From sequence record MW250785: a stretch of DNA of 64,000 bases; one strand, given 5' to 3'. This stretch comes from Escherichia phage UPEC03. The stretch's first letter is position 1. Each line of letters begins with the position of its first letter. Below are positions 11,469 through 49,838 of the stretch, one piece after another. The position numbers were made by a program, and so were the translations under genes. The notes below the pieces were generated by a model. It was given only the letters and a program-made list of their open reading frames with translations, was not told where the DNA came from and did not search any database.

Positions 11469-11743
11469 TAGGTTATAAAGATTATGATGAAAGAGTAGAA
11501 TGCGCGTTCCTGTTCAAAGGCGCGATTAACCCGTTGGCATTACTCCACGCACAGGGTGCTTTGAGTTCTACCCTGATTATGGGTGTTATCTACAAAGCAG
11601 GTGTGTATTACGTTACCATCGGCGCAAACAACATTAACGTGATCAACAGCTACGTTGAAAAATGTAAGCTGAAAGATATTGTGTTCGATAAAGTCGAAAT
11701 GGATGTTCCAGGCTTCGACGCTGTTTATATGTACAAGGGCTGA
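11465..11743 (+). CDS. hypothetical protein
   Basis: ATGA-coupled 92-aa ORF. Confidence 0.5.
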   Translation: MIGYKDYDERVECAFLFKGAINPLALLHAQGALSSTLIMGVIYKAGVYYVTIGANNINVINSYVEKCKLKDIVFDKVEMDVPGFDAVYMYKG

Positions 11744-11745
11744 TA

Positions 11746-11991
11746 ATGAGTTACGTAATTTATTTCGATTGTTCGGATCTTGATCCTTTCGTTCTGCAAC
11801 AGGCAAAGAAATATCATCAAGATATCACTGGTATCAGTGTCACGAACGATGATATGCTGTGCATCGAATTTGATTATTATCGTACATTTGAGCGTGACAA
11901 ATTCCTTGCGGATATTGAAGCGTTTAAAGTACCCTTTTCTTTGATCGTTATGAGGTTAAATCTTGAAACCAGTTATTCTTACCGACATTGA
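11746..11991 (+). CDS. hypothetical protein
   Basis: 81-aa ORF. Confidence 0.45.
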   Translation: MSYVIYFDCSDLDPFVLQQAKKYHQDITGISVTNDDMLCIEFDYYRTFERDKFLADIEAFKVPFSLIVMRLNLETSYSYRH

Positions 11992-12568
11992 CGGGATCGC
12001 CGTAAAATGGCAGTCGGGGTTGCCGTTCTTTTTGTCTAAACACAACATGCCGACCGATATCGCGCTGGATATGGTTACGGATGAAAAGTTCCGCGATATG
12101 ACCGAAATCTTCGGGTGTGATCACCAACTGGCGAAAATTCTCATGGAAGAATACAACAACAGTTCGTTTATTCGCTATCTAAGCGCGTATGACGATGCGT
12201 TAATTGTTATCAACCGTCTGAAAGCCAAATATGATTTTGTGGCTGTCACGGCGCTGGGAACCACTCCTACGGCAAGCCTTAACCGTATTGCAAACCTGAA
12301 CACGCTGTTCCCTTCTGCATTCAAAGAGGTTTGTGTTGTCGGTCACGGCGAAACGAAAGTACATCGTTACCTGGAAGCCAAAGCAAAATATGGCGATCGT
12401 TTAGTATGTTTCATTGATGACCTTGCAGTAAACTTGAATGAGTGTCATAACGTCATCAGTCAGTTGCCGTTATTCCATATGTTGCGTGGCGAACGTAGTG
12501 AACCGAGTGTACCTCATACTAAAGTGAATAACTGGCATGAAATTGAAAAAGCAATTGAGAACTCTTGA
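11963..12568 (+). CDS. HAD-superfamily hydrolase
   Basis: HAD motif I LTDIDGIAV; TTG start with RBS tgagg. Confidence 0.55.
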   Translation: MKPVILTDIDGIAVKWQSGLPFFLSKHNMPTDIALDMVTDEKFRDMTEIFGCDHQLAKILMEEYNNSSFIRYLSAYDDALIVINRLKAKYDFVAVTALGTTPTASLNRIANLNTLFPSAFKEVCVVGHGETKVHRYLEAKAKYGDRLVCFIDDLAVNLNECHNVISQLPLFHMLRGERSEPSVPHTKVNNWHEIEKAIENS

Positions 12569-13088
12569 TGAAGAAACGCAAGGTATAGAAAACCTACTAC
12601 AATGTATTCGAGTAGAACCAGAAACCGGAAAATGTTTCTGGTTGGAAAAGAGAAGTAATAAAATTCCTGCTGGAAGTGAAGCAGGTTCTTTTCATAAATC
12701 AAGTGGATATACGCGAATAAAATTCGAAAATGCGATGTACATCCGGTCACGGGTGATATTTTATTACGTTAATGGTTATCTTCCAGTGATGGTTGACCAT
12801 GTTCACGGTGTTGAATGCGGTGATATGATTTCTAATCTAAGGGAGTCCAATCAGGTAACAAATCAACAAAACCGCACACGGAATAAAAATAATACCGTTG
12901 GGTTTAAGGGCGTGTCATTCAACAAGAAATCGCAAAAATATAGCGCCAAAATCACTTTACATGGAGTGACTAAGTGGTTAGGATTTTATGATTCTGCCGA
13001 GGAAGCAAGTGAAGCATATAAGGCCAAAGCACTCGTTTCCTTTACACATAATGAAAGGTACTTAAATGATCTTACAGATTCTAAATGA
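12537..13088 (+). CDS. HNH homing endonuclease with AP2 DNA-binding domain
   Basis: HNH core VDHVHGVECGDMISNLR...N; AP2-like GFKGVSF...YSAKITLHG...GFYDSAEEASEAYKAKA; paralogous to ORFs at 30224 and 44376. Confidence 0.7.
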   Translation: MKLKKQLRTLDEETQGIENLLQCIRVEPETGKCFWLEKRSNKIPAGSEAGSFHKSSGYTRIKFENAMYIRSRVIFYYVNGYLPVMVDHVHGVECGDMISNLRESNQVTNQQNRTRNKNNTVGFKGVSFNKKSQKYSAKITLHGVTKWLGFYDSAEEASEAYKAKALVSFTHNERYLNDLTDSK

Positions 13089-14589
13089 ACTCGCTTCGAC
13101 TCTGAAAATTTCAGAGAAGGAAGCGATCCTGAAACGTAATGCAGGTAATGATCTGCTGAAAGAGATTTTCCGCATTACGTACACGAAACAGATTATGTTT
13201 CACATTAAGAAGTTTCCGCAGGTGGACGGTAAGCCAGGCACAACCCCGCTATCGAATGCTATCGCGGATTTGATGTCTGATTTGGCAACGCGAAAATATA
13301 CGGGCAACGCAGCCCGTGATCGTCTGCTGGATATCGTATCATCGGTGAACGAGAATGATCGCGAAGTGCTTCGCCGTATCATTAACCGCGATCTGGAATG
13401 TGGTGCTGGTACAACGTTACCGAACCGCGTATGGAAGAAACTCATTCCAGAACAGCCTCAATGCCTCGCTACGCCGTTTAGTGAGAAAGCCTTAAAACGT
13501 ATTCGCTTCCCTGCTTACTCGCAGCTTAAAGCCGATGGTGCGCGTTGTATGTCCGATCTGTTAGAGAATCAGATCCGCAAAGCAACCCGCGCGGGAAATG
13601 AGTATGAAGGTTTGGTGAATCTGGACAAGGATCTGAAAAAGATTCGTGAATATCTGGGTTATGATGTTGTACTTGATGGAGAACTGATTTATGTCCCTGC
13701 TGAAAAAACTGCTGTCGTTCCTTCAAACAGCGTTCCATTTAGTCTTGCTGGGTTTATGGGCGATGACGACGATTCTGTTTCTGACCTTGTGGCAGATGTT
13801 AGGCGGGAAGCTACCGAGAACGAGACACAAGCGGAAGCGAAACGCGAAGAGGGCAACGGGATTGTAAACAAATCCCTGAAAGGTACTATCAGCGACGAAG
13901 AACAGCGCAATATCGTTTATGTTGTCTGGGATATCGTACCGTATGAAGTATACTATGGCGATGCTCCGAGTGTTCAACCATATTGCGATCGTTTCTCTAT
14001 CCTGGAAGGTGCGCTGGCTGGCTCTGGTGTAACATCGGTTAAGTTGATCCCTTCTATCCTGGTGCAGAACTACGCGGAAGCGAAAAAGGATTACAACAAT
14101 TACCGCAATGACGGTAAAGAGGGTTCAATCCTGAAAAACGTTGATTTCAAATGGAAGGATTCACGCGTTGCGGATCAGGTGAAGTTGAAGAACAAAACCC
14201 CGATTGAACTGCGAATCATCGACGTGTACGAACACACCAAAGAAGCTCATAAGGTCGGAGGGTTCGTGGTTGAGGACTTATCAGGAGAAGCCAGAACAAA
14301 CACAGGTTCCGGTCTGACTGATACGGACTACCGATACGATGAAGACGGTATTAACCGCGTGTACATCCCGTTAGAAGAACGTGGTGAACTGGATCGCGAA
14401 TACATCATGGCGAACAAAGATGACTATATCGGCGCTATCGTCGAAATGGAAGTTGACGGACTCCAGAAGTCTAAAACGCGTAAGAAGGGCGAACCTGAGT
14501 TCAGTTTCTTCTTGCCAATCATCAAGAAGATCCGACGCGATAAGACCGAACCGGATGATATTCACGTTATCTTCGCTGATCTGTTTTAA
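13066..14589 (+). CDS. 30: ATP-dependent DNA ligase
   Basis: 507 aa; adenylation motif QLKADGARC; N-terminus resembles T4 gp30 as recalled. Confidence 0.9.
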   Translation: MILQILNELASTLKISEKEAILKRNAGNDLLKEIFRITYTKQIMFHIKKFPQVDGKPGTTPLSNAIADLMSDLATRKYTGNAARDRLLDIVSSVNENDREVLRRIINRDLECGAGTTLPNRVWKKLIPEQPQCLATPFSEKALKRIRFPAYSQLKADGARCMSDLLENQIRKATRAGNEYEGLVNLDKDLKKIREYLGYDVVLDGELIYVPAEKTAVVPSNSVPFSLAGFMGDDDDSVSDLVADVRREATENETQAEAKREEGNGIVNKSLKGTISDEEQRNIVYVVWDIVPYEVYYGDAPSVQPYCDRFSILEGALAGSGVTSVKLIPSILVQNYAEAKKDYNNYRNDGKEGSILKNVDFKWKDSRVADQVKLKNKTPIELRIIDVYEHTKEAHKVGGFVVEDLSGEARTNTGSGLTDTDYRYDEDGINRVYIPLEERGELDREYIMANKDDYIGAIVEMEVDGLQKSKTRKKGEPEFSFFLPIIKKIRRDKTEPDDIHVIFADLF

Positions 14590-14606
14590 ATAGCACTTTT
14601 TGCTAA

Positions 14607-14650
14607 AAAGCCCCTTGCATGAGTAAGGGGCTTTTGTTATATTACAAACA
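14607..14650 (+). promoter_or_regulatory. stem-loop/promoter cassette (PeSL-like) after ligase
   Basis: hairpin aaagcccctt-gcatgagt-aaggggcttt with -35-like TTGCAT in the loop, -10-like TATATT, then leader ACAAACATCGAAACGAAA. Confidence 0.55.
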
Positions 14651-14680
14651 TCGAAACGAAACAGACAAAAGGAACATCCC

Positions 14681-14953
14681 ATGCAAATCACTAAAGAACT
14701 CGAAGGCAAAGTAATCGTTCTGGTAAATGAAGACCGTTTGGCACAACTGGGTAACGGTGGTGAAAAACTGCCAGCGGACGCACTCGAAAGCCTTTCTAAA
14801 ATGCGTGTGATGCGTGTTACTGACGGTTGGGTTACTTGTCTGCCTCTGAACGACGAAGACAAAGCCGTATACGATGCACAAGCGGATTCATGGGATATCG
14901 AAGTACCTCTGGTAAACATCGAAGTTGAAGAGTGCTACGAAATCGAAAAATAA
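14681..14953 (+). CDS. hypothetical protein
   Basis: 90-aa ORF downstream of the cassette. Confidence 0.55.
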   Translation: MQITKELEGKVIVLVNEDRLAQLGNGGEKLPADALESLSKMRVMRVTDGWVTCLPLNDEDKAVYDAQADSWDIEVPLVNIEVEECYEIEK

Positions 14954-14956
14954 TGC

Positions 14957-14989
14957 TTGCTTACTGGGTAATGTAGTGGTACATTACCC
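14957..14989 (+). promoter_or_regulatory. candidate promoter with spacer stem-loop
   Basis: TTGCTT, 17-nt spacer, TACATT; 10-bp inverted repeat gggtaatgta/tacattaccc; followed by ATCGAAACGAAAGGAGA leader. Confidence 0.45.
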
Positions 14990-15014
14990 ATATCGAAACG
15001 AAAGGAGAAACATC

Positions 15015-15194
15015 ATGAAAATTATGCACACTGCAAATCAACTTCAAAACGGCAACTACGCTATCCACGATGCTATCGGTGCGCTGGTTGGGGTTTATCT
15101 TCATGGTATCAAACTCCTTGAAGTAAGTGGGAATACCTTTTATGGTGTTGAAAACATCGAAGCAGCGATGGAAATTATCGGTGACCTGAAATGA
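15015..15194 (+). CDS. hypothetical protein
   Basis: 59-aa ORF with RBS aaaggaga; start moved from track 14925 to the internal ATG. Confidence 0.5.
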   Translation: MKIMHTANQLQNGNYAIHDAIGALVGVYLHGIKLLEVSGNTFYGVENIEAAMEIIGDLK

Positions 15195-15382
15195 GTAAGA
15201 AACTCGAAATATTCGAAACTATCAGCGAAGACCCTAATCATCGCTGGTGCTGTGCGAAAACTGGTTTTGATGCTGCATGGGGTGATACTCCAGAACAGGC
15301 GCGTAAAAACTGGGAACACCAACAATTGTTTTTTGCCTGTCGGGTTCCTACCAATTATGAGGGGAGTCAATTGTTAGCATGA
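15191..15382 (+). CDS. hypothetical protein
   Basis: ATGA-coupled 63-aa ORF. Confidence 0.5.
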   Translation: MSKKLEIFETISEDPNHRWCCAKTGFDAAWGDTPEQARKNWEHQQLFFACRVPTNYEGSQLLA

Positions 15383-15675
15383 AAAATAAAGAATATGACC
15401 CAATAGAAGTTAAAGAGCGGTTATCGGTAGCAAGAAGATTCCTTGAATCTATCGACCCTGATAAACTTGGAAAATGCCCTGATACGATTTGCCTTAATTG
15501 TGGGCGATCCGTAATGGTTGGAAAGTGCTGTGATAATCAGAATATCGTTATCATGGACAGGAAAGAAGTTTCACCGGAAGTATGGGATCGGATTCAAGAG
15601 ATCATCAAAAACCCACCTGAACCGACGAAACGTTTACGCGAACTTATGAGCAGGAAACCACGTTATGAAAAATGA
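15379..15675 (+). CDS. hypothetical protein with Cys cluster
   Basis: 98-aa ORF; CPDTICLNCG...CC. Confidence 0.5.
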   Translation: MKNKEYDPIEVKERLSVARRFLESIDPDKLGKCPDTICLNCGRSVMVGKCCDNQNIVIMDRKEVSPEVWDRIQEIIKNPPEPTKRLRELMSRKPRYEK

Positions 15676-16039
15676 ACCAAGTAAAACTATCCGCCTGATC
15701 CGTTGGGAAGGGCAAGAAATCCGTTATGAAGACGACGACCGCGAATTCGTCCATGAAATGCTTGCGCATAATCTGGGATTCAAAAACGCCGCACTGGTGA
15801 TGATGCAACAAACCAGCGATGAAGACACCTGGCAATGCGTCATTCTCGATCTGGACAAAAACAAGGAATACACCGAAGATGAACTGTTTGCGCTCACAGA
15901 GAACGCTACAGCGCGTCAGAAGTGCTTCATGATCGATATGCCTCGCGAGAACTACGAGAATATCAAGAAAGCCCGTAAACAGAACAAGAACAACGTGTTC
16001 GACCTGTTCATGGGCTATCATGAAGAAACTACGGCCTAA
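15665..16039 (+). CDS. hypothetical protein
   Basis: 124-aa ORF. Confidence 0.5.
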   Translation: MKNEPSKTIRLIRWEGQEIRYEDDDREFVHEMLAHNLGFKNAALVMMQQTSDEDTWQCVILDLDKNKEYTEDELFALTENATARQKCFMIDMPRENYENIKKARKQNKNNVFDLFMGYHEETTA

Positions 16040-17139
16040 GCCTCACTTGTTTTGCTGGTGTCGTTAGTAGCCGCTGCCACCTGTACACATTCCAATGTTT
16101 GCAGGTGGAAATCTTTTGATACGTCGCGGACACATTCAACGATCAGATACTTCCCTGAATATTCATCCCCTAACACCTCAATCAATGCCCCCACTTTAAC
16201 ATCCATTCGACCCTGATTGATATCAAACCGAATACGTTTTTCATAGCTGGATAACGTCTGACACTTCACAGCCTGGAACGGTTGACCCTGTTTGTCTGGG
16301 TTCTGGAAGTTGTTCTCATATACCGCGTTTCTGTTCATGGTGATCCATGCGTTTTCAATATCGGTACTCGCAAGGATATCACTATACAGTTTTTTATCCG
16401 TCATCGAGAAACTAAAGAAACTTGCATCCCCTAACAGGGTAGTGTTATCCTTATGGGTAATGTATTCACCTTTCGTGAATACCAAAGCGTCACCTAAAAA
16501 CGGGTTACTTACGTTGAACTTGTAAGCCTTTAACGGGGTTTGTGCGAGGATCTCCGTATTGCTTTTCATAAAGATACCGGAACCATCTTCCCACAGATAA
16601 CAGAAGTCAGACGAATCTACGCTCTGCCCGTTGTCACGGATGTAATCAAACACGGTTTCATACGTCCCGCTCAGGCAAGCCGGAGGAATACGCACGTTTG
16701 ATGCGTCGATATGCGGCGTGATCAACTTCATATCGTTATACAGTGCCGTCATGCACTCTGTAATCGTCTGTACGGCGTTGTTACTGAACGAACGGGAAAA
16801 CTTACGACGAAACACCGTATGCACCGGAGAAAGGTTTAGGCGCAGTATAGAGCGGTTCATATCATCGGTTTCGACGTTTGAATACAGAACACCGTAGTAA
16901 TGCTGTTCTAACGTTTCGTTATACTGGAAGGATACCTGAATAATCGGTTTTTCTGTCAACTGATAGATTAACTGGTTATCATAGATCTGCATCAATGTTT
17001 CAGAAGTACCGTTAATGATGGTTTTCTCACTCATTGAGACAAGGGCAGGTAACAATTCAAGATAGACGTTATCAGCGAACTTTTCATATGTTGGATATAA
17101 TTTAACCGACACGACGCGGTTTATAACTTTACTGGACAT
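16036..17139 (-). CDS. 27: baseplate hub subunit (gp27-like)
   Basis: 367 aa; segments resemble T4 gp27 as recalled (VSVKLYPTYE, LMQIYDNQ, IIQVS, CYLWED); RBS ggagg. Confidence 0.65.
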   Translation of the reverse strand: MSSKVINRVVSVKLYPTYEKFADNVYLELLPALVSMSEKTIINGTSETLMQIYDNQLIYQLTEKPIIQVSFQYNETLEQHYYGVLYSNVETDDMNRSILRLNLSPVHTVFRRKFSRSFSNNAVQTITECMTALYNDMKLITPHIDASNVRIPPACLSGTYETVFDYIRDNGQSVDSSDFCYLWEDGSGIFMKSNTEILAQTPLKAYKFNVSNPFLGDALVFTKGEYITHKDNTTLLGDASFFSFSMTDKKLYSDILASTDIENAWITMNRNAVYENNFQNPDKQGQPFQAVKCQTLSSYEKRIRFDINQGRMDVKVGALIEVLGDEYSGKYLIVECVRDVSKDFHLQTLECVQVAAATNDTSKTSEA

Positions 17140-17201
17140 TAGACATCCTCCCTTTATATTCTATTTACTAAATAGTAAATATCGGGATACTTGAGGCGAT
17201 C

Positions 17202-17780
17202 ATGAAAGAGAAGAAAAACACACTTGATAAATTTATGGTTACGCGTTTAAACATCAAGAACAGCAAAAATAAAGTAGTCACGTTGCCTACTGGTGAACAG
17301 GTTACGATCCCCCGTCTGGGCTATCGTCATTTCACCCAGATTAAAGCAATGAAAGACCCAATGCAGTTGCTTGAGTATATCATCAAAGAGATTCAACCGC
17401 GCGAATTAACCGCAGCAGAAACCGAATTCCTTTTGATTCACCTGCATTATCACAATGACGATAAAGCAATGGCGATACTGAAAGAGATCGGTATTAATCT
17501 GGATGATATGAAAATCAGCGAAGCTAAGTATGAACATACTTTTGATAACCTTCGATTGGTCTTCAATAAACCGACCCTAATGCTGGATGATCTGGCATTA
17601 CTGCTTAAAGAAGCGTATGACAACGGGAAGCCGATCGAACTGACGGACGAAAACCGTATTCAATTAATTAACTGCCTGTATCGTTATGAATATGACGATG
17701 TAAAACGTGGCGTACTCCAGGAAGTCTATATTGTGCATGAGGGGAAAACCATTAAAGGGCTTAACATCATCGGTGAATGA
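17202..17780 (+). CDS. putative baseplate hub distal subunit (gp28-like), assigned by position and size
   Basis: 192-aa ORF immediately upstream of, and coupled to, the gp29-like gene. Confidence 0.4.
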   Translation: MKEKKNTLDKFMVTRLNIKNSKNKVVTLPTGEQVTIPRLGYRHFTQIKAMKDPMQLLEYIIKEIQPRELTAAETEFLLIHLHYHNDDKAMAILKEIGINLDDMKISEAKYEHTFDNLRLVFNKPTLMLDDLALLLKEAYDNGKPIELTDENRIQLINCLYRYEYDDVKRGVLQEVYIVHEGKTIKGLNIIGE

Positions 17781-24560: not shown

Positions 24561-24701
24561 TTACCCCAAACAGATTTTACATTTACAGAGAGGACATTCC
24601 GCCTCTTTAACGCGCAAGCGCTTTGTTGCTGTTCGCTTCGCTGTGTTGTGATCATACACATGCAAACAGCGATAACAGATCACCAATCGTTTAGCCGTCA
24701 T
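24561..24701 (-). CDS. small zinc-ribbon-like protein (46 aa)
   Basis: hand-found ORF MTAKRLVICYRCLHV...CPLCKCKICLG; start overlaps upstream stop. Confidence 0.35.
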   Translation of the reverse strand: MTAKRLVICYRCLHVYDHNTAKRTATKRLRVKEAECPLCKCKICLG

Positions 24702-25164
24702 AACCACCACCGCAACGAACATCACCTTCAATGAACAGTTCGCGGTTATCTCTCAGGAGATTGTATTTCTTTTCGAGTTCCGGCCCGAATGCGTCCGCGT
24801 CGTCATACCAGTCATAGTTATAACTTCCGGTTTCCTCGTCGTATTCCGGTTCGTCGCCGCACTCATTGAAGTGAACGATTTTAACATCATCCAGATTCAG
24901 TTCTTTCAGCTTGTCCCAGATGCGGGTTATTTCGACGCTATTACATCCGAACGCTTCCAGTGTGATTGTACCGTCATCATGTACTTGAGGAACACCCCAG
25001 CGCGGACGATGATGAATTTCGGTGATCATATCCATCAGCGATTCAACGTTTGACTCACCGTAAATCTTTGCAACTTCCTGTTCTTTACCAGGGCGGACAA
25101 GTCCTATCCCGATAATGAAACTACTGCTTGAGCTATTGCTCACGAACCCAGAACGGATCTTCAT
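24691..25164 (-). CDS. hypothetical protein, paralogue A with conserved N-terminal peptide
   Basis: 157 aa; first 16 residues MKIRSGFVSNSSSSSF identical to ORF 28599..29111 although six codons differ synonymously; acidic YDW motifs. Confidence 0.65.
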   Translation of the reverse strand: MKIRSGFVSNSSSSSFIIGIGLVRPGKEQEVAKIYGESNVESLMDMITEIHHRPRWGVPQVHDDGTITLEAFGCNSVEITRIWDKLKELNLDDVKIVHFNECGDEPEYDEETGSYNYDWYDDADAFGPELEKKYNLLRDNRELFIEGDVRCGGGYDG

Positions 25165-25352
25165 CGCCTTGCCTCGTATTTCGCGTTATCTGCGATTTTC
25201 TCATGATACAGGTTGTATGACAACACCAGCGGGATACAAGCTACTATAAGCCCGATGATAGCCAGTTGATATTCGCGTTTATCGAACGCCATGAATGTAA
25301 TCGTAGCGCCCAGAATAAACACACCTAACGCAATGATGAAGAATAATGTCAT
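25161..25352 (-). CDS. small membrane protein
   Basis: 63 aa with two predicted TM helices; ATGA-coupled. Confidence 0.5.
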   Translation of the reverse strand: MTLFFIIALGVFILGATITFMAFDKREYQLAIIGLIVACIPLVLSYNLYHEKIADNAKYEARR

Positions 25353-25975
25353 TTTGGCAGGGTATCCATTTCACGAGATTTTGCTTTCAGGATGTCAATC
25401 ACAGTAGTCATCGCCTGTTCTACATCACCATCATAGTGAACCAGGAATGTTTTGTGAAGTCCCATGATCAGACGATTGATGATATAAGCCATTTCTGACG
25501 GTAACAGTTTACCATTCTGGCGATCGTACTTTCCAAACAAGCGGTAGAGTTCTGCGCTGTTGCCTGGCTTCTCAATGCTGAAATTATGCATCCCAGACAG
25601 AATACCATCCAGATACAGAACAGTTTTGTTATCACTACGCAGGTGTCCGCCGACCTTGTAGTAGTTGCTGAATACATACGGTTTTTCGCGGATATCTTCG
25701 ATATCGAAATCACCATGATCTTCGATGTTGCCAACATGGGCGAAGAAATGATGATCTTCCAGTTCGAGAAGGATTGCACCCTTTTTGTATGGGAATCCGA
25801 CTAAATCGATCTGCCAGCCATTTTCACCGACAAAGACATCATCGACAACCACGAAATCCGGCAGCATAGGCGCGTATGCGTGGTTCTTTTCGTTGTTTTC
25901 ACGATAGGCTTGTGGTTCGGACAGATACAGGATATCGCCTTTTACAACTTCACCCCAGAATACGTTACGTGACAT
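25349..25975 (-). CDS. hypothetical protein
   Basis: start moved to ATG 25975, which has RBS gagga and follows a hairpin. Confidence 0.5.
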   Translation of the reverse strand: MSRNVFWGEVVKGDILYLSEPQAYRENNEKNHAYAPMLPDFVVVDDVFVGENGWQIDLVGFPYKKGAILLELEDHHFFAHVGNIEDHGDFDIEDIREKPYVFSNYYKVGGHLRSDNKTVLYLDGILSGMHNFSIEKPGNSAELYRLFGKYDRQNGKLLPSEMAYIINRLIMGLHKTFLVHYDGDVEQAMTTVIDILKAKSREMDTLPK

Positions 25976-26016
25976 ATTATTTTCCTCAATATGCCCCCTT
26001 TCGGGGGCGGTCATTG

Positions 26017-28263
26017 TTAGATTTTGACTTCTTTTTCTTCCAGGACGATTTCACATTCGAATGATGTGGTTTCCCAGACTTTCCAGAAATCGGATGGAAT
26101 ATTATCTTCTTTCGGAAGAATATCTTTTGCAGCGATAGAAACTTTGGTTTCTTCGAAGTCCAGATCCGCGAACCATGCATGGGCTACTACAACACCGTAC
26201 ATTACGCGACTTAAACGGGCATTCAGTTTACGGACTTCCTGAATCGTTGCCTTTGTCTGCTTATCAAGATACTCGACTACCTGATCTTTGTCAAGCGCAT
26301 CCAGTTCAGATTTCACCTGATCGTAAGCCCACAGGATAATCAGGTCGCCGTTGTTCAGTTTCTTCTTACCTTCGTCACGTTTCGCGACGGTAGCCGCTAC
26401 AGCAGGAAGGGAGGAAACACCCTTGACTTTCACGTTCAGTTCTTTCGACATGTAAACATCAGTCGATTCTGTGCGCTCAACCTTCGGAGAGAACCCGTAA
26501 TCACGAATATCCTGTTCAGACAGCCATTCACCCGCTGCATCACCAAAGCGCTGTTTCAGCCCTTCTGCGTTGCGCAGTCCGATCGCGTTGTCACGGAAGA
26601 ACTTCATAACCTTCTGACGGCCTTTCAGGATTTCCAGACGCACGTTATCAGTCACGAACTCTTTACCGCTTAACCCGCGAGTCATGCCACGGTTAACCAG
26701 AGGCAGAGAGGTAAAGTCTACCAGTACCGACATACGGTCATCACCGATTTTTTCCAGCGGCTTGATAGTCAGGCCAGAAGCGCGAAGGTTTTTCAGTGTC
26801 GGAATATCAGTTTCCAGCGGCAGAACTTTCACGTTCACGATACCATCTTTAACGATGGTGAAGTTACGCACCTGCTTAGTTTCGATTTTTTCCGGCAGAC
26901 CGAATTCTTTCTGTTTGCTTTCTGGGATAGTCACATACCCTTCCAGATCCGTGTTGATGGAAATGTTAGGACGGGAACTGTTACCCACCAGATGTTTAAC
27001 CGATACTTTGGTTGTGGTCTGGGTAAATTTCGGTGTCCAGACTTCATGCGCTACCATTTGCGCCGCCAGTGCTTTACGTTCTTCTGGGATTGCAGCGTTT
27101 GCGATCTGTTCGGTCAGTTGATCCAGTGTATCATCTTCTTTCTGTACAGTCTGACGGCCTGTGCGGTTATACGCCCAGTGCTCAGAAGACAGGTCGATCA
27201 CTGTGTCAGTTTGTGCCAGCAGTTCGAGCGCATCAACCAGAGTGAACGCGTTTTCGTCTGGAACCATGTTGTAATCAATACCATCAACGAAACGCTGTGA
27301 TGGATCTACAACAGCCTGTGCAATCAGGTCTTTCGCGTTGGAGTAGTCCTGTTTGGTAAAGCAGTTGTCATACGCCTTGATCAGACGGACATCACCCAGC
27401 TTTTGAAGCACTTTCCATGCCAGATCAGGGTTCATTGTGTGCAGTGCATGATAAAGCACGACATACAGAACTTGCTGTTCGCTGGCGATGTTCGGATCGA
27501 ATCCGTCAACATCATTAATCGCGTTTTCACCCAGCGCCCAGATGTTTTTGATGTGTTCTGGAACTAGCACAACACCGTTTGCAGCGTTCAGGACATACAC
27601 GCACCCTTCGTCCAGGTAGATCGCATGGGTAGCATCAGCAACTTTGACTTCGATACGCGCGGAAGTCTGCGCGGTGATGATTTCGTTAAATGCTGGTTCG
27701 TATGCGTCGAAACCTTCAACGAATTTGTGCAATGCGTTGGTTGCTTCTGCCATTTTTTCCAGCAGAGGACGGTTTACATAATAACCGTATTCCAGGAACG
27801 CGATACTGTTGAAAGTCAGTGGCAGAACCGCACACGCTTTCAGAATATCATCGGTACGCCAGCAGTTATCATAACCATCAGTCAGGAAGATCAGGCTGTT
27901 CAGGTTGCCGTTTTCAGATTGCAGATCGGTAGCGATTTCCGCAGCCAGATTCAACGGCTCAACAAAGCCAGTACAACCCGTAGGTTTCAGGTAACGGTCG
28001 ATAGCCGCGCAGATGTTAGACAGGTCAGAGACATTGCTAACCTTCTCACCACGGAACACCGTGCCGTAATCGCCTTTGCTGGAGAAGTACAGGATCGAAA
28101 CGGTGTCATCCTGTTTAACCAGACTCGCCAGATTTGCTTTCAGGTGTTTACGGATCTTAGGCAGTTCGTTGTACATTGAACCGGATACGTCACACACGAA
28201 AACGTGGTTTGTCGGGGTTGGCTTCGATACAGCGTTTTTGAATTCGATATTTGTGATTGACAT
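26017..28263 (-). CDS. von Willebrand factor A (vWA) domain protein
   Basis: 748 aa; N-terminal MIDAS motif VFVCDVSGSM and later FLTDGYDN; long C-terminal region with no motif recognised. Confidence 0.7.
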   Translation of the reverse strand: MSITNIEFKNAVSKPTPTNHVFVCDVSGSMYNELPKIRKHLKANLASLVKQDDTVSILYFSSKGDYGTVFRGEKVSNVSDLSNICAAIDRYLKPTGCTGFVEPLNLAAEIATDLQSENGNLNSLIFLTDGYDNCWRTDDILKACAVLPLTFNSIAFLEYGYYVNRPLLEKMAEATNALHKFVEGFDAYEPAFNEIITAQTSARIEVKVADATHAIYLDEGCVYVLNAANGVVLVPEHIKNIWALGENAINDVDGFDPNIASEQQVLYVVLYHALHTMNPDLAWKVLQKLGDVRLIKAYDNCFTKQDYSNAKDLIAQAVVDPSQRFVDGIDYNMVPDENAFTLVDALELLAQTDTVIDLSSEHWAYNRTGRQTVQKEDDTLDQLTEQIANAAIPEERKALAAQMVAHEVWTPKFTQTTTKVSVKHLVGNSSRPNISINTDLEGYVTIPESKQKEFGLPEKIETKQVRNFTIVKDGIVNVKVLPLETDIPTLKNLRASGLTIKPLEKIGDDRMSVLVDFTSLPLVNRGMTRGLSGKEFVTDNVRLEILKGRQKVMKFFRDNAIGLRNAEGLKQRFGDAAGEWLSEQDIRDYGFSPKVERTESTDVYMSKELNVKVKGVSSLPAVAATVAKRDEGKKKLNNGDLIILWAYDQVKSELDALDKDQVVEYLDKQTKATIQEVRKLNARLSRVMYGVVVAHAWFADLDFEETKVSIAAKDILPKEDNIPSDFWKVWETTSFECEIVLEEKEVKI

Positions 28264-28599
28264 TTAAATTTTCTCGTATTTGAATTTTTCTAAAATTTCG
28301 TTAACTTTATTGCTTACTGCTTCGACTGTACGATCACACCCGAACTTACGCGCCAGGAGTTCAACGTATTCATCCATCGTAGTGAGTTTGGATTCTGCAA
28401 CGTCAAACGCAAGCGCATACATTACTGGATTCAATACTCGAACGATTTGGAGAGTATACTCGTTCAGTTCAAAACGTTCAAGATATTTTCGCAGAGAAAA
28501 TACATCAAACGGTGCGGGGCGATCCTGGCTAAAGGGGATCGACTCCCCTAATGCATAGCGAGGCATAACAACACAGACTTCGGTTTTTAACTTATCCAT
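28264..28599 (-). CDS. hypothetical protein
   Basis: 111-aa ORF between paralogue B and the vWA gene. Confidence 0.5.
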   Translation of the reverse strand: MDKLKTEVCVVMPRYALGESIPFSQDRPAPFDVFSLRKYLERFELNEYTLQIVRVLNPVMYALAFDVAESKLTTMDEYVELLARKFGCDRTVEAVSNKVNEILEKFKYEKI

Positions 28600-29111
28600 C
28601 AGTGATGACTCTTTGATGTGTGTTCAAGGTTACGGAAGATGTTTCCATGTTCCAGTTGAGTTCCGATCGGGCCGCATTCATCGGAGTACGTGAATTCATA
28701 GATAAACACGCCGTCCTGATTGCCATACTTCGTGTTGTACTCTTCATACAACCACATTTTGATCAGAGCGTCTTTCTCTTCTGTGTCCAGATCGTACCAG
28801 TCTCGCCCGTCATACGCAAGCGCAATTTGAGGGTTTGAACGGTAGCGGGTTTCTGCGCTTTCTTCGGTTTCCCAGTCATAGCGTTTATCGTCGTAGAACG
28901 ATTCAAAGCTATTACCCAGATGACCGCCTAAGTCACGGTGAACATGATTGACCACTTCTTCCGCTGTTAACGGAGGATTGTAGTAACCGCAGTTCGGAAC
29001 GCAATCACCCATCATTTCGCGCAGGTTGTCGATATTAGTCGGATCTTTCGGGAACCGGACGATGAAACTACTTGATGAACTGTTGCTCACAAAACCAGAA
29101 CGGATTTTCAT
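28599..29111 (-). CDS. hypothetical protein, paralogue B with conserved N-terminal peptide
   Basis: 170 aa; N-terminus MKIRSGFVSNSSSSSF identical to paralogue A; RBS gagga. Confidence 0.65.
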   Translation of the reverse strand: MKIRSGFVSNSSSSSFIVRFPKDPTNIDNLREMMGDCVPNCGYYNPPLTAEEVVNHVHRDLGGHLGNSFESFYDDKRYDWETEESAETRYRSNPQIALAYDGRDWYDLDTEEKDALIKMWLYEEYNTKYGNQDGVFIYEFTYSDECGPIGTQLEHGNIFRNLEHTSKSHH

Positions 29112-29341
29112 TTTACATCCTCAAATTGTAAGTTTTCTTTGGTTGCGTTCGCAATGGCTTTTTCGTTGCTCAGTGTTACTATGCGCAGACGTTCTCCAGT
29201 AAAGCCGTCGCATTCAGTGATACTTACCCAGTCAAAAGGTTTAGCCATTTCAATCGCACGTTCCAGCGATACGGTAGAACCGACCAAATCACTAAATGTA
29301 TAGTAATCTTCGCTTAAACTTTCAACAGTATAAATTTTCAC
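29108..29341 (-). CDS. hypothetical protein
   Basis: 77 aa; N-terminus MKIYTVESL resembles that of ORF 29577..29849. Confidence 0.5.
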   Translation of the reverse strand: MKIYTVESLSEDYYTFSDLVGSTVSLERAIEMAKPFDWVSITECDGFTGERLRIVTLSNEKAIANATKENLQFEDVK

Positions 29342-29580
29342 GATACTTTACCTTTTGTTTCAGATTTCAGGACGATGTTACTGTAAGGATCTTTTGCTAC
29401 CAGTTCCCACAGGTCGCCAGGATGTTCCCCGCTACGGTAGACGGATGAACGGATGATTTCGTTAAACTTGCTCAGGGCTTCGTCTATGTCGTCATACCCG
29501 CATTTGAGAGGCTTACGGTTGCAACGAATGAAGAACATTTCGTTGGTATTCTCCCAGCGTTCGGCGTTTTTAACCTTCAT
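29338..29580 (-). CDS. hypothetical protein
   Basis: 80-aa ATGA-coupled ORF. Confidence 0.5.
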   Translation of the reverse strand: MKVKNAERWENTNEMFFIRCNRKPLKCGYDDIDEALSKFNEIIRSSVYRSGEHPGDLWELVAKDPYSNIVLKSETKGKVS

Positions 29581-29849
29581 ACCGCCTCCATTTTACCAAT
29601 GACTTCTTCGTATGTCACAGGGTTAGGTTCATAGCCGTTAGCGCCTATTGTATCGCCTACTCTGTTTCCTACTAAAGAAGCAACCGCAACTTTCTTGCCG
29701 TCTTTCCACGCAGTGAAATGCAGATTATCCGCAACATACGGGAAGGTTTCGTGATTGTTCACCGCGTCGATGCAGTCCATAACGGTATCAGACGCGCAGA
29801 TCAGATTACCAGGTTCATAATCAACCAAACATTCAACAGTGTAAATCAT
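29577..29849 (-). CDS. hypothetical protein
   Basis: 90 aa; N-terminus MIYTVECL. Confidence 0.5.
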   Translation of the reverse strand: MIYTVECLVDYEPGNLICASDTVMDCIDAVNNHETFPYVADNLHFTAWKDGKKVAVASLVGNRVGDTIGANGYEPNPVTYEEVIGKMEAV

Positions 29850-30223: not shown

Positions 30224-30760
30224 TCAGTATGCAATGTTTAATTTTGCAAATTTACCAAAATGTTTTATCGCTTCCCGATCGTATGCTTTTGCAGCCTCGT
30301 ATTCGTCACGATAGGAACCGATATGTTTAACCTTGCCGTCAATCTTTATCTGTGCAATGTAACGTATTCCAGTAGGTTGATCACGTACACATACACCCTT
30401 GAATCGACTGGTTGCTACTCTTCGTTTAGTCCGGTTCTGACAGTTTCGGGATTGATCCGCTTCACGCAAGTTATCAATCCCGTCGCCAGCCTCAACACCA
30501 TTTTTATGATCAATCACATCAGGCAGTTTTCCGGTTGCAACGTAGTAGATGATTCGATGACGTAGATATCCTTTGCTTTTGAAATAAACGCGGGTATATC
30601 CTCCTTTAATCTTCGAACCTACTTCCTTTCCGATCAAGTCAGAACGTTTGTGTGACGTTCGTATAATTGTCCCCGTTTGTATATCAACAGAAACAGTTTT
30701 AAGGAATTCGTCAATTCCTTTCTGTTCTTCTTCGATTGTTCTTAGTCCGTTGTGTGACAT
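30224..30760 (-). CDS. HNH homing endonuclease with AP2 domain
   Basis: HNH core RHRIIYYVATGKLPDVIDHKNGVEAGDGIDNLR; AP2-like FKGVCVRD...YIAQIKIDGK...GSYRDEYEAAKAYD; overlaps the methyltransferase gene 3' end. Confidence 0.7.
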   Translation of the reverse strand: MSHNGLRTIEEEQKGIDEFLKTVSVDIQTGTIIRTSHKRSDLIGKEVGSKIKGGYTRVYFKSKGYLRHRIIYYVATGKLPDVIDHKNGVEAGDGIDNLREADQSRNCQNRTKRRVATSRFKGVCVRDQPTGIRYIAQIKIDGKVKHIGSYRDEYEAAKAYDREAIKHFGKFAKLNIAY

Positions 30761-31665
30761 AACACCTTCTTGATTTGTTTTGCTATAGCCTCGATTACTG
30801 GTATTGAAACAGAATTACCTGCTTGTTTATACGCTTGCATCTTGCTTTTGTTGATAATAAACGAATCTGGGAAACCCTGCAAACGAAAACACTCACGGGG
30901 AGTAAGTCTTCGGGGGTTCTTTCCTTCCTGCAATACCAGACATTGAACACCATCTTTATAGTAATTTGCAGTGATAGTCCCAGTGTGCGTAGAATCGCTT
31001 GTGACGGCCTGATAACCGAAACCCTTACCGTTTGCCTTATTTCGTTCCTTACGCTCTCTAAAGCCCTTCCATGCGTTATCTGACAGGGTGAACGAATCAT
31101 CAGCATCTTCGAGGATGTCGCCTACGCGTGTAGGGGTACGCGGGGGAACCGGAAACGAAAAGAATACATCATCCAGGAAGCAGACAATAAACACGCGTTC
31201 CCGTCTTTGGGGTAGTCCGAAATCCTTTGTGTTCAGGCGTTGATAGAATACGTTATATCCTTCGGCCTCCAGAAGCCCGTAAATCGTTTTAAACGTCTTC
31301 CCCTTGTCATGGGTTAGCAGTTCAGGCACGTTCTCAAAGAACAACACACGGGGCTTTTTAGCGCGTATAATGCGGAGGATTTCGAAGAACACCGTACCGC
31401 GTACATCATCAAAGCCCAGTTTCAATCCGGCTTTACTGAACGCCTGACACGGGAACCCCGCGAGCAGGATATCATGATCAGGTACTTTGTTTTCATCAAT
31501 GGCGAATAGATCACCCTGTAGGTTATCATCGCCCCAGTTTTCGATATATGTTTGCTGTGCGAACTTGTCGATTTCAGACGTTAAAAGGCATTCGACACCG
31601 CCGAACGCCTTATCAAATCCTAATCGAACCCCGCCCACACCAGCGCAGAGGTCAATTATTTTCAT
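30742..31665 (-). CDS. DNA (cytosine-5)-methyltransferase
   Basis: 307 aa with C5-MTase motifs I DLCAGVGG, IV GFPCQAFS, VI FFENV, VIII QRRERVFIV and X AGNSV. Confidence 0.85.
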   Translation of the reverse strand: MKIIDLCAGVGGVRLGFDKAFGGVECLLTSEIDKFAQQTYIENWGDDNLQGDLFAIDENKVPDHDILLAGFPCQAFSKAGLKLGFDDVRGTVFFEILRIIRAKKPRVLFFENVPELLTHDKGKTFKTIYGLLEAEGYNVFYQRLNTKDFGLPQRRERVFIVCFLDDVFFSFPVPPRTPTRVGDILEDADDSFTLSDNAWKGFRERKERNKANGKGFGYQAVTSDSTHTGTITANYYKDGVQCLVLQEGKNPRRLTPRECFRLQGFPDSFIINKSKMQAYKQAGNSVSIPVIEAIAKQIKKVLCHTTD

Positions 31666-48391: not shown

Positions 48392-48684
48392 CAGAATGTG
48401 ATCTCCGCAAACTGCATTCTACGCTCAATCGCATGGATAGCGTTATCACGCTGTTCTTTGTTTTCATATCCAGCCCAGGTAATCGGAGTTGAACAGATCA
48501 GGTGAAAAGTGATTGCTGGGTGTCTCTTCCCTTCAACAACGATTGTTGCATCATCTTCGATCCAGGTTACGTGATCCAGATTCACCGGATAGTTTCTTAC
48601 GGTAACAGTTTCACCAACCATAGGCGACACGTCCAGAATATCACGATCACGAACGTATGATTTAATACGAGATACGATTAACAT
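48391..48684 (-). CDS. hypothetical protein
   Basis: 97-aa ORF. Confidence 0.5.
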   Translation of the reverse strand: MLIVSRIKSYVRDRDILDVSPMVGETVTVRNYPVNLDHVTWIEDDATIVVEGKRHPAITFHLICSTPITWAGYENKEQRDNAIHAIERRMQFAEITF

Positions 48685-49838
48685 TATTTCAACTCCACTG
48701 CATATACATCGGTTTCAGGGGCTTTGTGTACGCGCATATCTTTACCACATACCGCATAAGCCGGACAGTTACGGCAACCGTTATGATCCTTGTTGCCCGT
48801 CAGTTCTTTACGGAACTGTTTTGTTTTCGGGTGTTCCCAGATATCCTTCACAAAATCTTCGGCTTCCAGAACATCCAGACCTTCTTCCCAGCCACCTTCA
48901 ACCCAACGTTCGGTAAACGAGCAAGGGAAGAACTGACCACGTTCATTAATGTAAGAGCTAAACATCGTCGCTTCACAGTCTTCGGCGTATTGCTTGTACT
49001 GTTCGAAGTTCGGGTGTCCCTCCATCGCTTCAACGAAAGCGGGGGCTGAACAGCTATCGAATCCAAATCCTACACCAGAATCGAGGCAATATTCAACAAG
49101 TTTTTTATATTGTTCGCGGGTAACGGTGTCCCAGTTCTTACCGCGTCCTTTTTGTTTCAGTCCCAGGAACACGATCGCGTTGACTTGTTTCAGGCGCGGA
49201 TCATTCTTCACGGCATCAACCACGTTAAACGCATCATCATAGGTTTTCGAGCTAACCATGAAGTGAAGGTTGATTTGCTGTTGTCCGGCTTCTGTCAGGT
49301 TCGCTACTGAGTCGAAAGCGACATCAAAACCAGCGTGTTTATAAACCGATACCGCAACAGCCCCAGCAACCGCCGCTAAACGCGCTGCAACGTCTTTTGA
49401 TACGTCAGCAATGGTAAGGTTCGGTACAATGCCTTTAGAACGCGCATACGCCATCATATCGAACATATCAGGGTTTGTTTGCCCCTGTGCATCAGCACCG
49501 AGTGCGCATTGAGTCAGCCAGGGCATTTTGTCGATGATTTTTTTGAAGTTGGCAAGATCCATGTTGAACCCGTTAGGGTTATTGGACTTGTAGCAGAACC
49601 CGCAGAGTTTACCAGCGGGACCATTACATTTGGTAGTGATCTCAACATCCAAGATTTCTGGGAATGGGGCATAGGTAGGATCAGTTTCGAACGATGTTCC
49701 CCAGCGAGCAAACTCACCAGTTTTAACGTTGAAATTGTAGTTGTACCAATTAGAGCGAGCGAAGCGCATATTACCCTGCTGGTAAATCATTAGCGAAGGG
49801 GCTTTCATTACAGTCTGTGCGCGGTCAATAATATCCAT
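48684..49838 (-). CDS. putative Fe-S / radical-SAM-like enzyme
   Basis: 384 aa; Cys cluster TTKCNGPAGKLCGFCYK (Cx7CxxC) near the N-terminus and C-terminal GCRNCPAYAVCG. Confidence 0.4.
   Translation of the reverse strand: MDIIDRAQTVMKAPSLMIYQQGNMRFARSNWYNYNFNVKTGEFARWGTSFETDPTYAPFPEILDVEITTKCNGPAGKLCGFCYKSNNPNGFNMDLANFKKIIDKMPWLTQCALGADAQGQTNPDMFDMMAYARSKGIVPNLTIADVSKDVAARLAAVAGAVAVSVYKHAGFDVAFDSVANLTEAGQQQINLHFMVSSKTYDDAFNVVDAVKNDPRLKQVNAIVFLGLKQKGRGKNWDTVTREQYKKLVEYCLDSGVGFGFDSCSAPAFVEAMEGHPNFEQYKQYAEDCEATMFSSYINERGQFFPCSFTERWVEGGWEEGLDVLEAEDFVKDIWEHPKTKQFRKELTGNKDHNGCRNCPAYAVCGKDMRVHKAPETDVYAVELK

Follow-up and report, generated by a model that had tools for sequence, protein, structure and literature searches.

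A portable N-terminal tag on unrelated phage proteins is genomically linked to a family of radical-SAM/SPASM enzymes

A 16-residue peptide heads two otherwise dissimilar proteins of Escherichia phage UPEC03, recurs at the N-terminus of many unrelated viral protein families, and is encoded in close genomic association with a single family of radical-SAM (rSAM)/SPASM enzymes. Our analysis suggests that this tag is probably the handle through which the phage enzyme recognizes and modifies its substrates, the two phage proteins (A and B) being unrelated cargos. Together, tag and enzyme point to a system for protein modification or docking that is encoded by viruses and has not been described. The window referred to throughout is the entire 64,000-nucleotide stretch analyzed (sequence record MW250785).

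One tag on two different proteins

The tag-bearing genes and their surroundings are as follows.

28599..29111, minus strand: gene B, 170 aa, tag plus a phrog_7397-family cargo domain with conserved C-terminal YSDExG...EHGNIFR...SHH
29064..29111, minus strand: tag of B, codons 1-16, MKIRSGFVSNSSSSSF
24691..25164, minus strand: gene A, 157 aa, tag plus a cargo without detectable similarity to B; acidic GDEPEYD...YNYD, C-terminal GGGYDG
25117..25164, minus strand: tag of A, codons 1-16, MKIRSGFVSNSSSSSF
24691..29849, minus strand: packed gene chain with B, a 111-aa ORF, a 748-aa von Willebrand factor A (vWA) protein, ORFs of 221 and 63 aa, and A (context only)

Both ORFs singled out in the initial annotation are present, on the minus strand, and their common N-terminus is MKIRSGFVSNSSSSSF(I), i.e. 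16 residues plus the next I; both protein starts read MKIRSGFVSNSSSSSFI. As that annotation had stated, six of the 16 codons (2, 6, 7, 10, 11 and 13) differ between A and B, each synonymously; at codon 13 the serine codon family switches (AGC in one gene, TCA in the other), and codon 17 differs likewise (ATT/ATC). The dN/dS comparison it had proposed gives 9 synonymous nucleotide differences per ~9.7 synonymous sites over codons 2-17, which is near saturation, and 0 non-synonymous differences per ~38.3 sites. No third copy of the tag was found within the window.

The two genes had also been described as divergent paralogues with weak similarity around YDW motifs, a view that our comparisons contradict. 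BLASTP aligned only residues 1-18 of A and B, hhalign aligned the first 36 columns of the A-family and B-family profiles and nothing else, and no profile similarity was detected once the first 20 residues were dropped. Because there is no similarity outside the tag, the match between A and B is best described as one tag on two different proteins. Searches of Pfam, NCBIfam and PADLOC (2.0) assigned neither protein to a family, and the predicted fold of B has no match in the PDB. Within PHROGs, B matches phrog_7397 only (unknown function), and the acidic C-terminal half of A matches phrog_132, labeled 'head-tail adaptor' (E 4.5e-9); we take this label, which covers the acidic segment only, as an unverified transfer in view of the early-type gene context. 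A and B indeed lie in a minus-strand early-type cluster, opposite the baseplate genes.

Along the minus strand between 29849 and 24691, most neighboring ORFs share 4 nt; the other junctions comprise a 1-nt overlap, a direct abutment and a 2-nt gap. The earlier proposal that A and B share an operon with the vWA gene (26017..28263, minus strand), which sits between them, therefore holds. The vWA protein, which PADLOC 2.0 did not match, was considered as a partner of the tag and rejected, as it is not a recurrent neighbor at other loci.

The tag heads many unrelated cargo families

What had been presented as a peculiarity of two paralogues extends to at least 507 unique viral or metagenome-assembled genome (MAG) proteins, and a tag profile search, of the kind the initial annotation had advised, matched 9,732 representatives of 50%-identity clusters. 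The consensus is M-K-x-R-x-G-F-V-S-N-S-S-S-S-S-F-[IV]-[IV]; among the 507 unique proteins K2 (98%), R4 (99.8%), G6 (97%), F7 (98%), V8 (96%) and S15 (97%) are conserved, and positions 3 and 5 are free. The tag begins at the start codon in 271/271 occurrences checked (261 ATG, 10 GTG/TTG). Across 237 distinct heads, all six serine codons are found at positions 9, 11, 12 and 15 and five at positions 13 and 14; both serine codon families (AGY and TCN) occur at every serine position, and both arginine codon families are in use at position 4. Selection therefore acts at the level of the peptide rather than on an RNA element, as first proposed.

With the tag removed, the remainders of 549 proteins fall into 167 clusters, and hhalign links only three of the 16 largest. 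These cargos range from 33 to 321 aa (median 131) and are of mixed types, including Cys-rich zinc-ribbon-like and all-helical inserts. The tag is thus portable, obligatorily N-terminal and shared by many unrelated cargo families. Its rare variants group by genome, e.g. G6S together with S9A in four paralogues of a single genome, and none of 2000 shuffles attained the tag similarity observed within loci (0/2000); this grouping counts in favor of a pairing of tag and enzyme but could also stem from the common descent of tandem paralogues.

Tag genes are linked to one radical-SAM/SPASM family

Among loci picked by the tag motif, 24 carry an rSAM gene on the same strand, no more than 2 kb from the tag gene wherever the gap was scored. 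The converse selection, by enzyme alone, yielded 80 viral loci, and in 60 of these one or more tag genes lie no further than 10 kb away; every tag gene at these loci (203/203) is on the enzyme's strand, and most of the enzyme-linked tag genes lie directly downstream of the enzyme, in arrays of up to 13. Beyond the window's clade, looser motif matching found tag-family genes at 63 of 72 loci, against only 12 of those 72 for the runner-up neighbor family, and a survey of neighbor families revealed no protease, exporter or transporter family recurring beside tag or enzyme genes. Within the window's clade the tag genes are 19-24 kb from the enzyme, so the linkage there is at genome level only. Among records of cultured phages, 173 carry protein A and 173 the rSAM enzyme, with an almost equal genus breakdown, and ~171 of the ~173 enzyme-bearing records are RB43/KP15/Karam-type phages, the window's own group. 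A single rSAM/SPASM family thus emerges as the strongly linked genomic neighbor of the tag, in viral genomes as well as in a bacterial operon, and no other partner recurs.

The window's member of this family (tblastn E down to 4e-79), which the initial annotation had missed as a context of the tag, is encoded about 20 kb from A and B.

48684..49838, minus strand: radical-SAM/SPASM (twitch-like) enzyme, 384 aa, Cx7CxxC plus four further family-invariant Cys

Radical SAM proteins are recognized by a CxxxCxxC motif that holds the SAM-binding [4Fe-4S] cluster within a partial TIM barrel. The cluster motif of the window enzyme is Cx7CxxC (KCNGPAGKLCGFCY), that of most relatives is CxxxCxxC, and its three cysteines are invariant in the family alignment. 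Homologs score above the Pfam PF04055 cut-off, and Pfam SPASM (PF13186) is matched at 24.5 bits against a cut-off of 21.5. Four further cysteines (C263, C288, C306 and C358) are invariant in the family, and the bacterial subgroup features a fuller CxxCxxxxxCxxxC pattern. The AF2 model has a pLDDT above 90 over the enzyme, and Foldseek matches it to rSAM structures, with hits to TigE, BlsE, HydE, PqqE and EpeE. The nearest named relatives are the peptide or protein maturases MftC, PqqE and WgkB; every match to a named maturase family (MftC, PqqE, WgkB, anSME, FxsB and others) falls far below its NCBIfam cut-off, the best score of the window enzyme being 28.6 bits against a cut-off of 380. PADLOC 2.0 returned no match for the window enzyme. 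Its N-terminal extension is predicted by AF2 as four β-strands with no helices, and is therefore not a canonical winged-helix RRE.

The tag as a probable enzyme handle

The cognate partner of the tag would be the phage rSAM/SPASM enzyme, which would recognize A and B through it, such that one enzyme serves many tagged substrates; the modification would most likely fall inside the tag itself. This logic would resemble that of RiPP leaders and their maturases, and that of anSME (AtsB), which matures whole proteins. That the enzyme physically recognizes the tag, and that the tag is modified, are inferences. Three chemistries with precedent are candidates: formylglycine formation by oxidation of a serine C-beta, as in AtsB/anSME; a cyclophane of the FxsB/XyeB type that cross-links Phe-x-Ser at F7-V8-S9; and epimerization of the EpeE/YydG type. 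Serine oxidation in whole proteins and cyclophane formation both have precedents amongst rSAM-SPASM enzymes (PMC10114670). When tag, linker and enzyme were modeled as an AF2 fusion, without a scrambled control, a weak signal emerged: tag residues 1-10 reach a pLDDT of 68, with a strand at residues 2-4, against 47 in the B monomer, and residues 11-30 stay below 50.

Several observations count against this interpretation. The AF2 fusion signal is weak, the N-terminal extension of the enzyme is no canonical RRE, no leader protease or exporter recurs beside the genes, and in the window's own clade tag and enzyme genes lie well apart. Enzymes of the family share only 26-43% identity, much less than the tag conserves, an unusual contrast for a leader and its enzyme. 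In the predicted model of B (numbered as protein residue minus 1), moreover, the tag runs without a linker into the first hydrophobic strand of the cargo (residues 13-20), unlike classical leaders.

A wider scheme of radical-SAM-dependent virus tagging is more tentative. Here one enzyme would modify the 16-residue handle on dozens of unrelated effectors per genome, for example with formylglycine, a Phe-Ser cyclophane or D-residues, providing an 'activation code' for early or counter-defense proteins, with a homologous module in bacterial Avs-like operons. That the cargos are expressed early and act in host takeover or counter-defense is speculation.

Alternative explanations

The same linkage data would also accommodate an adaptor model, in which the tag docks a variable cargo on the enzyme as an exchangeable, F-box-like specificity subunit, and the target bound by the cargo is acted on while the tag stays unmodified. 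That so invariant a tag sits on such diverse cargos, that no leader protease co-occurs, and that the weak AF2 fusion signal is confined to residues 1-10 are all consistent with this model. We nevertheless consider it unlikely: we know of no precedent for rSAM-SPASM enzymes with exchangeable protein adaptors, and the invariant Ser/Asn run fits a reaction site better than a docking strand. Characterized relatives, furthermore, act on the peptide or protein that they bind (PMC10114670).

Alternatively, all tagged proteins might form a single ancient superfamily with one small α/β fold, whose N-terminal strand and Ser-rich loop constitute a catalytic or ligand-binding core, the remainder having diverged and the rSAM link being one of pathway only. 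In the B model the sheet begins with the SSSFIV segment, which is paired to conserved C-terminal strands, family B retains invariant C-terminal D/E/H/N/R motifs, and, by eye, many clusters share a hydrophobic strand, an acidic S/D-D/E-x-G loop and a C-terminal aromatic-D/N-G. However, the cargos are heterogeneous in size, tagless profile-profile comparison unites few clusters, the B fold lacks a PDB counterpart, and active-site motifs are rarely invariant at 16/16 positions and fixed to residue 1, all of which renders common descent quite improbable.

A targeting signal read by host or virion machinery (for capsid targeting, packaging, secretion, the membrane or degradation) appears very improbable. 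One such signal, the T4 capsid-targeting sequence, comprises the N-terminal ~10 residues of internal proteins and ends in a gp21 cleavage site, L/I-x-E. Like the tag, it is a short N-terminal peptide on otherwise unrelated, fast-evolving proteins of T4-like genomes, and the 'head-tail adaptor' match of A could be read in the same direction. The initial annotation had nonetheless set both this sequence and hydrophobic signal peptides aside, and rightly so. Residues 1-20 of A and B contain no Glu, and hence no gp21-type site, and we rejected the capsid-targeting identity; residues 9-15 read S-N-S-S-S-S-S, and the lack of a hydrophobic h-region, lipobox or RR motif led us to reject Sec, Tat and lipoprotein signals. 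The tag further differs from the T4 signal in its own sequence, its early-type gene context opposite the baseplate genes, its spread far beyond T4-like phages and its rSAM link, which targeting leaves unexplained. Contigs binned with Firmicutes, Spirochaetes, Proteobacteria and archaeal MAGs retain the tag, and a receptor specific to one host fits poorly with such a spread. No model in Pfam, NCBIfam or PADLOC describes the tag, and the earlier suggestion of a new leader or recognition tag was the right class of idea.

A cause at the nucleotide level, whether a recent duplication, a gene conversion or an RNA or translation-initiation element common to both genes, would explain why 40/48 of the first nucleotides of A and B are identical, but its probability is negligible, since gene conversion would leave identity where we find purely synonymous differences near saturation, the 40 nt upstream of the two genes are unrelated, and the free codon choice across the 237 heads already refutes it.

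Comparison with known maturation systems

Under the handle interpretation, the closest precedents lie amongst peptide and protein maturases. AtsB/anSME is an rSAM-SPASM enzyme that modifies a serine in a full-length protein via C-beta hydrogen abstraction (PMC10114670). The window enzyme is likewise of the rSAM-SPASM type, but in place of a full SPASM domain it has a single auxiliary site of four Cys, and it scores below all NCBIfam family cut-offs; the anSME substrate motif (C/S)-x-(P/A)-x-R is absent from the tag consensus, and this identity was rejected. Glycyl-radical proteins carry the fingerprint R-V-x-G-[YF] near the C-terminus and are served by PflA-type activases that lack SPASM. This too was rejected: the R-x-G-F of the tag is one residue shorter and N-terminal, and the enzyme features SPASM.

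Kaur et al. 2020 and Haft & Basu 2011 are said to place FxSxx-COOH/FxsB in vWA-MoxR and AP-ATPase conflict systems. FxSxx systems combine a small, fast-diverging protein bearing an F-x-S peptide with an rSAM-SPASM gene in STAND NTPase conflict operons, and their motif is C-terminal and released by a zincin peptidase (PMC7159879). Shared features are F7-V8-S9 in the tag, a bacterial protease-STAND operon and the vWA gene between A and B. However, the F-V-S-N-S segment of the tag is N-terminal, no peptidase is linked and the vWA gene does not recur, so an FxsA identity was rejected; FxsB is absent among the NCBIfam matches listed for the enzymes.

Families pairing an rSAM enzyme with a target peptide have reportedly been described by Haft & Basu, and prochlorosin-like systems follow a logic of one enzyme and many substrates. 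The tag loci resemble such RiPP systems in that an rSAM/SPASM gene is followed by 1-13 co-oriented genes with a conserved N-terminal region and hypervariable remainders, i.e. precursor-like genes with a co-located maturase. They differ in that the variable parts are proteins of many unrelated families rather than short cores, the conserved part is 16-18 nearly invariant residues fixed to residue 1, and the system is essentially viral; a short precursor, leader protease, exporter and canonical RRE (wHTH) enzyme are all lacking. A literature search for the tag as a text string returned no paper, and we found no description of the system in the literature on phage rSAM/RiPP or on RB43 or KP15.

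Implications

If the tag is the enzyme's substrate handle, then the 9,732 cluster representatives define a large protein family, and radical-SAM maturation, familiar for short peptides and sulfatases, would gain a wide range of viral proteins as substrates. Since one maturation step would be common to them, hundreds of phage 'ORFan' families would together gain a first clue to their function. A portable 16-residue tag also has biotechnological potential. Nearly all cultured examples are RB43/KP15/Karam-type phages, so the question can be addressed directly in E. coli, Klebsiella or Enterobacter.

A bacterial version of the module

A conserved bacterial Avs-like operon comprises a tagged 137-aa protein and an rSAM/SPASM gene. 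Its NTPase is Avs2-like (PADLOC E 1e-17), its effector is a trypsin-like protease (hence a protease-STAND operon), and PADLOC gave its rSAM protein a generic pVip match over the rSAM core only. The KpAvs2 operon encodes an Avs2-type STAND protein together with two accessory proteins, the rSAM protein Avap1, which has no known substrate, and the small Avap2 (DUF6375) (PMC11564622). An Avap2/DUF6375 (Pfam PF19902) identity was rejected, as four bacterial tagged proteins, A and B gave no match at E up to 1. The operons thus differ in their small proteins and in their effectors, Mrr in KpAvs2 and a trypsin-like protease here, yet both combine an Avs2-type STAND protein, an rSAM enzyme (Avap1 in KpAvs2) and a small protein. 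This would connect the early genes of phages with an accessory module in the NLR-like (Avs) immunity of bacteria.

Genes A and B share an N-terminal tag

The initial annotation had described two open reading frames with a common N-terminal peptide, joined in one operon with a vWA gene. Both are present, on the minus strand, and start with the same residues, MKIRSGFVSNSSSSSFI; the peptide itself, MKIRSGFVSNSSSSSFIV, is referred to here as the tag, and the rest of each protein as its cargo. The principal features are:

24691..25164, minus strand: gene A, tagged ORF, 157 aa
25161..25352, minus strand: 63-aa ORF, predicted transmembrane segment, phrog_7160 (unknown function)
26017..28263, minus strand: 748-aa protein with N-terminal vWA/MIDAS domain, Pfam VWA, phrog_2426 (unknown function)
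28599..29111, minus strand: gene B, tagged ORF, 170 aa

The operon holds up: minus-strand ORFs are tightly packed from 29849 to 24691, mostly by 4-nt overlaps, with a 1-nt overlap, one abutment and one 2-nt gap, and the vWA gene lies between B and A. The 63-aa ORF is translationally coupled to the start of gene A by an ATGA overlap. This cluster stands opposite baseplate genes, in a window ~98% identical to T4-like phages of Enterobacter, Cronobacter and Klebsiella (RB43/KP15/Karam type). One record labels the vWA protein a "minor tail protein". vWA-MoxR conflict systems have been tied to FxSxx peptides and radical-SAM (rSAM)/SPASM enzymes (PMC7159879); vWA was not found as a recurrent neighbor of tag genes in other loci. 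Inspection by eye of 30224..31665 (minus strand) points to a likely homing-endonuclease-like gene, an ORF of 178 aa containing a DNA-binding segment of AP2 type; this ORF and the end of a C5 DNA methyltransferase gene (FPCQ motif) overlap. Endonuclease genes with an AP2 domain are described as varying among RB43-group phages (PMC3861415).

Six tag codons (2, 6, 7, 10, 11 and 13) differ between A and B, all synonymously, as had been reported (codon 13, for instance, pairs AGC with TCA); codon 17 also differs synonymously. The first 48 nt are 40/48 identical, and codons 2-17 carry 9 synonymous nucleotide differences per ~9.7 synonymous sites against 0 per ~38.3 non-synonymous sites.

The proposal that A and B are divergent paralogues did not survive, since their similarity is confined to the tag. 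BLASTP aligns residues 1-18 and nothing further, the two family profiles align over their first 36 columns alone, and comparison of the A and B cluster profiles without residues 1-20 found no similarity. As judged from these comparisons, no paralogy between A and B can be detected. Family B (154-266 aa) has conserved C-terminal motifs of its own, YSDExG...EHGNIFR...SHH, behind a variable middle. In family A the acidic core is a different one, and the C-terminus reads GGGYDG. Searches of Pfam and NCBIfam gave no family for either protein. B corresponds to phrog_7397 (unknown function), and residues 77-148 of A, its acidic C-terminal half, match phrog_132, "head-tail adaptor" (E 4.5e-9), a label also carried by some Pharokka-annotated records. 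This label is doubtful because the cluster that holds gene A is of early type and the neck genes are far away.

The tag is widespread and conserved as a peptide

A degenerate DNA pattern for MK.R.GFVSNSSSSSF matched at least 120 stretches and at least 241 ORFs in IMG/VR, mostly on 50-320 kb contigs and often in tandem arrays. Among the matches listed, the tag sits at the start codon in 271/271 occurrences (261 ATG, 10 GTG or TTG). In the same loci, both AGY and TCN serine codons are used at every tag serine, with all six occurring at positions 9, 11, 12 and 15, and both arginine codon families occur at position 4. This mixing of codon families across tag genes bears out the earlier suggestion that selection acts on the peptide.

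Conservation of the tag among at least 507 unique tagged proteins, all loci pooled
K2: 98%
R4: 99.8%
G6: 97%
F7: 98%
V8: 96%
S9: 92% (T 7%)
N10-S11-S12: 100% by construction, being demanded by the selection filter
S13: 90%
S14: 79%
S15: 97%
F16: 94% (Y 6%)
Positions 3 and 5: free

The family B profile, searched exhaustively, matched 9,732 cluster representatives at an E cut-off of 1e-3 and only 564 at 1e-30, which suggests that many of the weaker matches may have little beyond the tag in common. Across 100,044 species-representative genomes, the tag pattern occurs in 58 stretches only, mostly MAG contigs, plus a few isolates. At least one of them, a "Candidatus Pacearchaeota" MAG contig (JALOBX010000002.1, 209,974 bp; loci L151-L153), is probably a mis-binned phage, because it equals in length an IMG/VR viral contig carrying the rSAM gene and a tag gene. 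This gene pair also occurs on several Asgard and Nanoarchaeia MAG contigs, which may be of viral or cellular origin.

Tag genes co-localize with a radical-SAM/SPASM enzyme

The window encodes the following enzyme, matched by tblastn at E down to 4e-79 as a member of one rSAM family:

48684..49838, minus strand: rSAM/SPASM enzyme, 384 aa

This family, whose members are 26-43% identical, has three invariant cluster cysteines and four further invariant cysteines, and scores above the Pfam SPASM cut-off; NCBIfam matches to MftC, PqqE, WgkB and the tungsten-cofactor maturase all fall far under theirs. The window enzyme has a non-canonical Cx7CxxC spacing, as opposed to CxxxCxxC: KCNGPAGKLCGFCY. The same 4-residue insertion is seen in several family members (as in CKGPGGIPCPFCY), and others keep the canonical spacing.

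Loci selected by the tag motif contained 24 members of this one family, each co-oriented with tag genes and less than 2 kb from them wherever the gap was scored. On the Veillonella parvula chromosome, a tagged gene overlaps the start of an rSAM/SPASM gene. We also ran the reverse test, picking loci by the enzyme alone and taking the best 80 of 212 confirmed viral stretches. At least one tag gene lay within 10 kb of the enzyme in 60/80 of these; across the same best 80, all 203/203 tag genes were on the enzyme's strand, and most of them follow it immediately downstream, as arrays with up to 13 members. The largest array, in L195 (IMGVR_UViG_3300037247_001786, 461 kb; 11714..17439), comprises 13 consecutive tagged genes immediately downstream of the rSAM gene. 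The first nine loci in the list, all among the 20 negatives, comprise eight from the window's own clade (87-100% identical to its enzyme), where tag genes lie on the same strand 19-24 kb away, and L188, a relative at 63% identity with K2R tag variants that the strict pattern missed. With looser motif matching, tag-family genes were found in 63/72 loci outside the window's clade. No other gene family recurred beside the enzyme in more than 12 loci, and therefore neither a protease nor a transporter is linked. In a set of 50,697 cultured phage records, protein A occurs in 173 and the enzyme in 173, with an almost identical genus breakdown.

A bacterial operon contains a tagged gene and an rSAM/SPASM gene

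A conserved operon was found in six bacterial contigs from Firmicutes, Campylobacterota and other bacteria (L176, 2984..9265; also L126, L130, L133, L165 and L170), with three partial ones. Its genes are, in order:

Gene 1: MBL-fold protein
Gene 2: fusion of a trypsin-like protease and a STAND NTPase, Avs2-like (E 1e-17)
Gene 3: 140-aa protein
Gene 4: tagged 137-aa protein, MKIR.GFVTNSSSTSF
Gene 5: rSAM/SPASM enzyme
Gene 6: 304-aa protein

From its gene content, this looks like an undescribed Avs-type defense operon with an rSAM accessory module. An uncharacterized rSAM accessory protein is likewise part of the published KpAvs2 operon (PMC11564622). By hhalign, the tagged 137-aa protein shows homology (probability 94-98%) to two of the phage cargo clusters; its identification as DUF6375/Avap2 was rejected, with no match.

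The tag as a candidate modification handle

Read most economically, these data make the tag the handle by which the co-encoded rSAM/SPASM enzyme would recognize and modify its targets, such that one enzyme would act on many tagged protein substrates. Two further observations give weak support. Rare tag variants cluster by genome, with 0/2000 shuffles attaining the observed value. When the tag was fused to the enzyme through a GS linker and modeled with AF2 (paired alignment, no scrambled control), tag residues 1-10 reached pLDDT 68, compared with 47 in the B monomer, residues 2-4 formed a strand, and residues 11-30 stayed below 50.

That the tag is instead an adaptor or docking peptide, itself unmodified, is unlikely. 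A single ancient fold whose N-terminal core is conserved is rather improbable: the tag-less remainders form 167 BLAST clusters, of which 123 are singletons, and hhalign connects only 3 of the 16 largest clusters. One large cluster, cluster 1 (46 members; L005, L007, L008, L013 and others), has paired Cys/His motifs right behind the tag, C..C...C.NGH..C..H...CP.C, with the look of a treble clef or zinc ribbon. A targeting signal for host or virion is very unlikely, and a nucleotide-level element, set beside the mixed codon families, has a negligible chance.

As a handle, the tag would belong to an already known kind of system, in which an rSAM/SPASM maturase is encoded together with its tagged targets. 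The variant has not been described before: viral, protein-scale, with an invariant N-terminal Ser-rich handle, lacking a protease and tied to an Avs-like bacterial operon. No model covering the tag was found in Pfam, NCBIfam or PADLOC, PHROGs holds unnamed cargo families only, and neither the tag string nor its pairing with the enzyme was found in the library searched. Unlike a classical leader, the tag has no linker before the first cargo strand in the B model and no linked protease, the N-terminal extension of the enzyme does not resemble an RRE by AF2, and conservation of the tag far exceeds that of the enzyme.

Precedents exist for such chemistry. AtsB/anSME oxidizes the Ser C-beta in whole sulfatase proteins, and FxsB, XyeB and GrrB form cyclophanes (PMC10114670). 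An F7-V8-S9 segment is present in the tag. The Foldseek neighbors of the window enzyme are TigE, BlsE, HydE, PqqE and EpeE, the last an epimerase.
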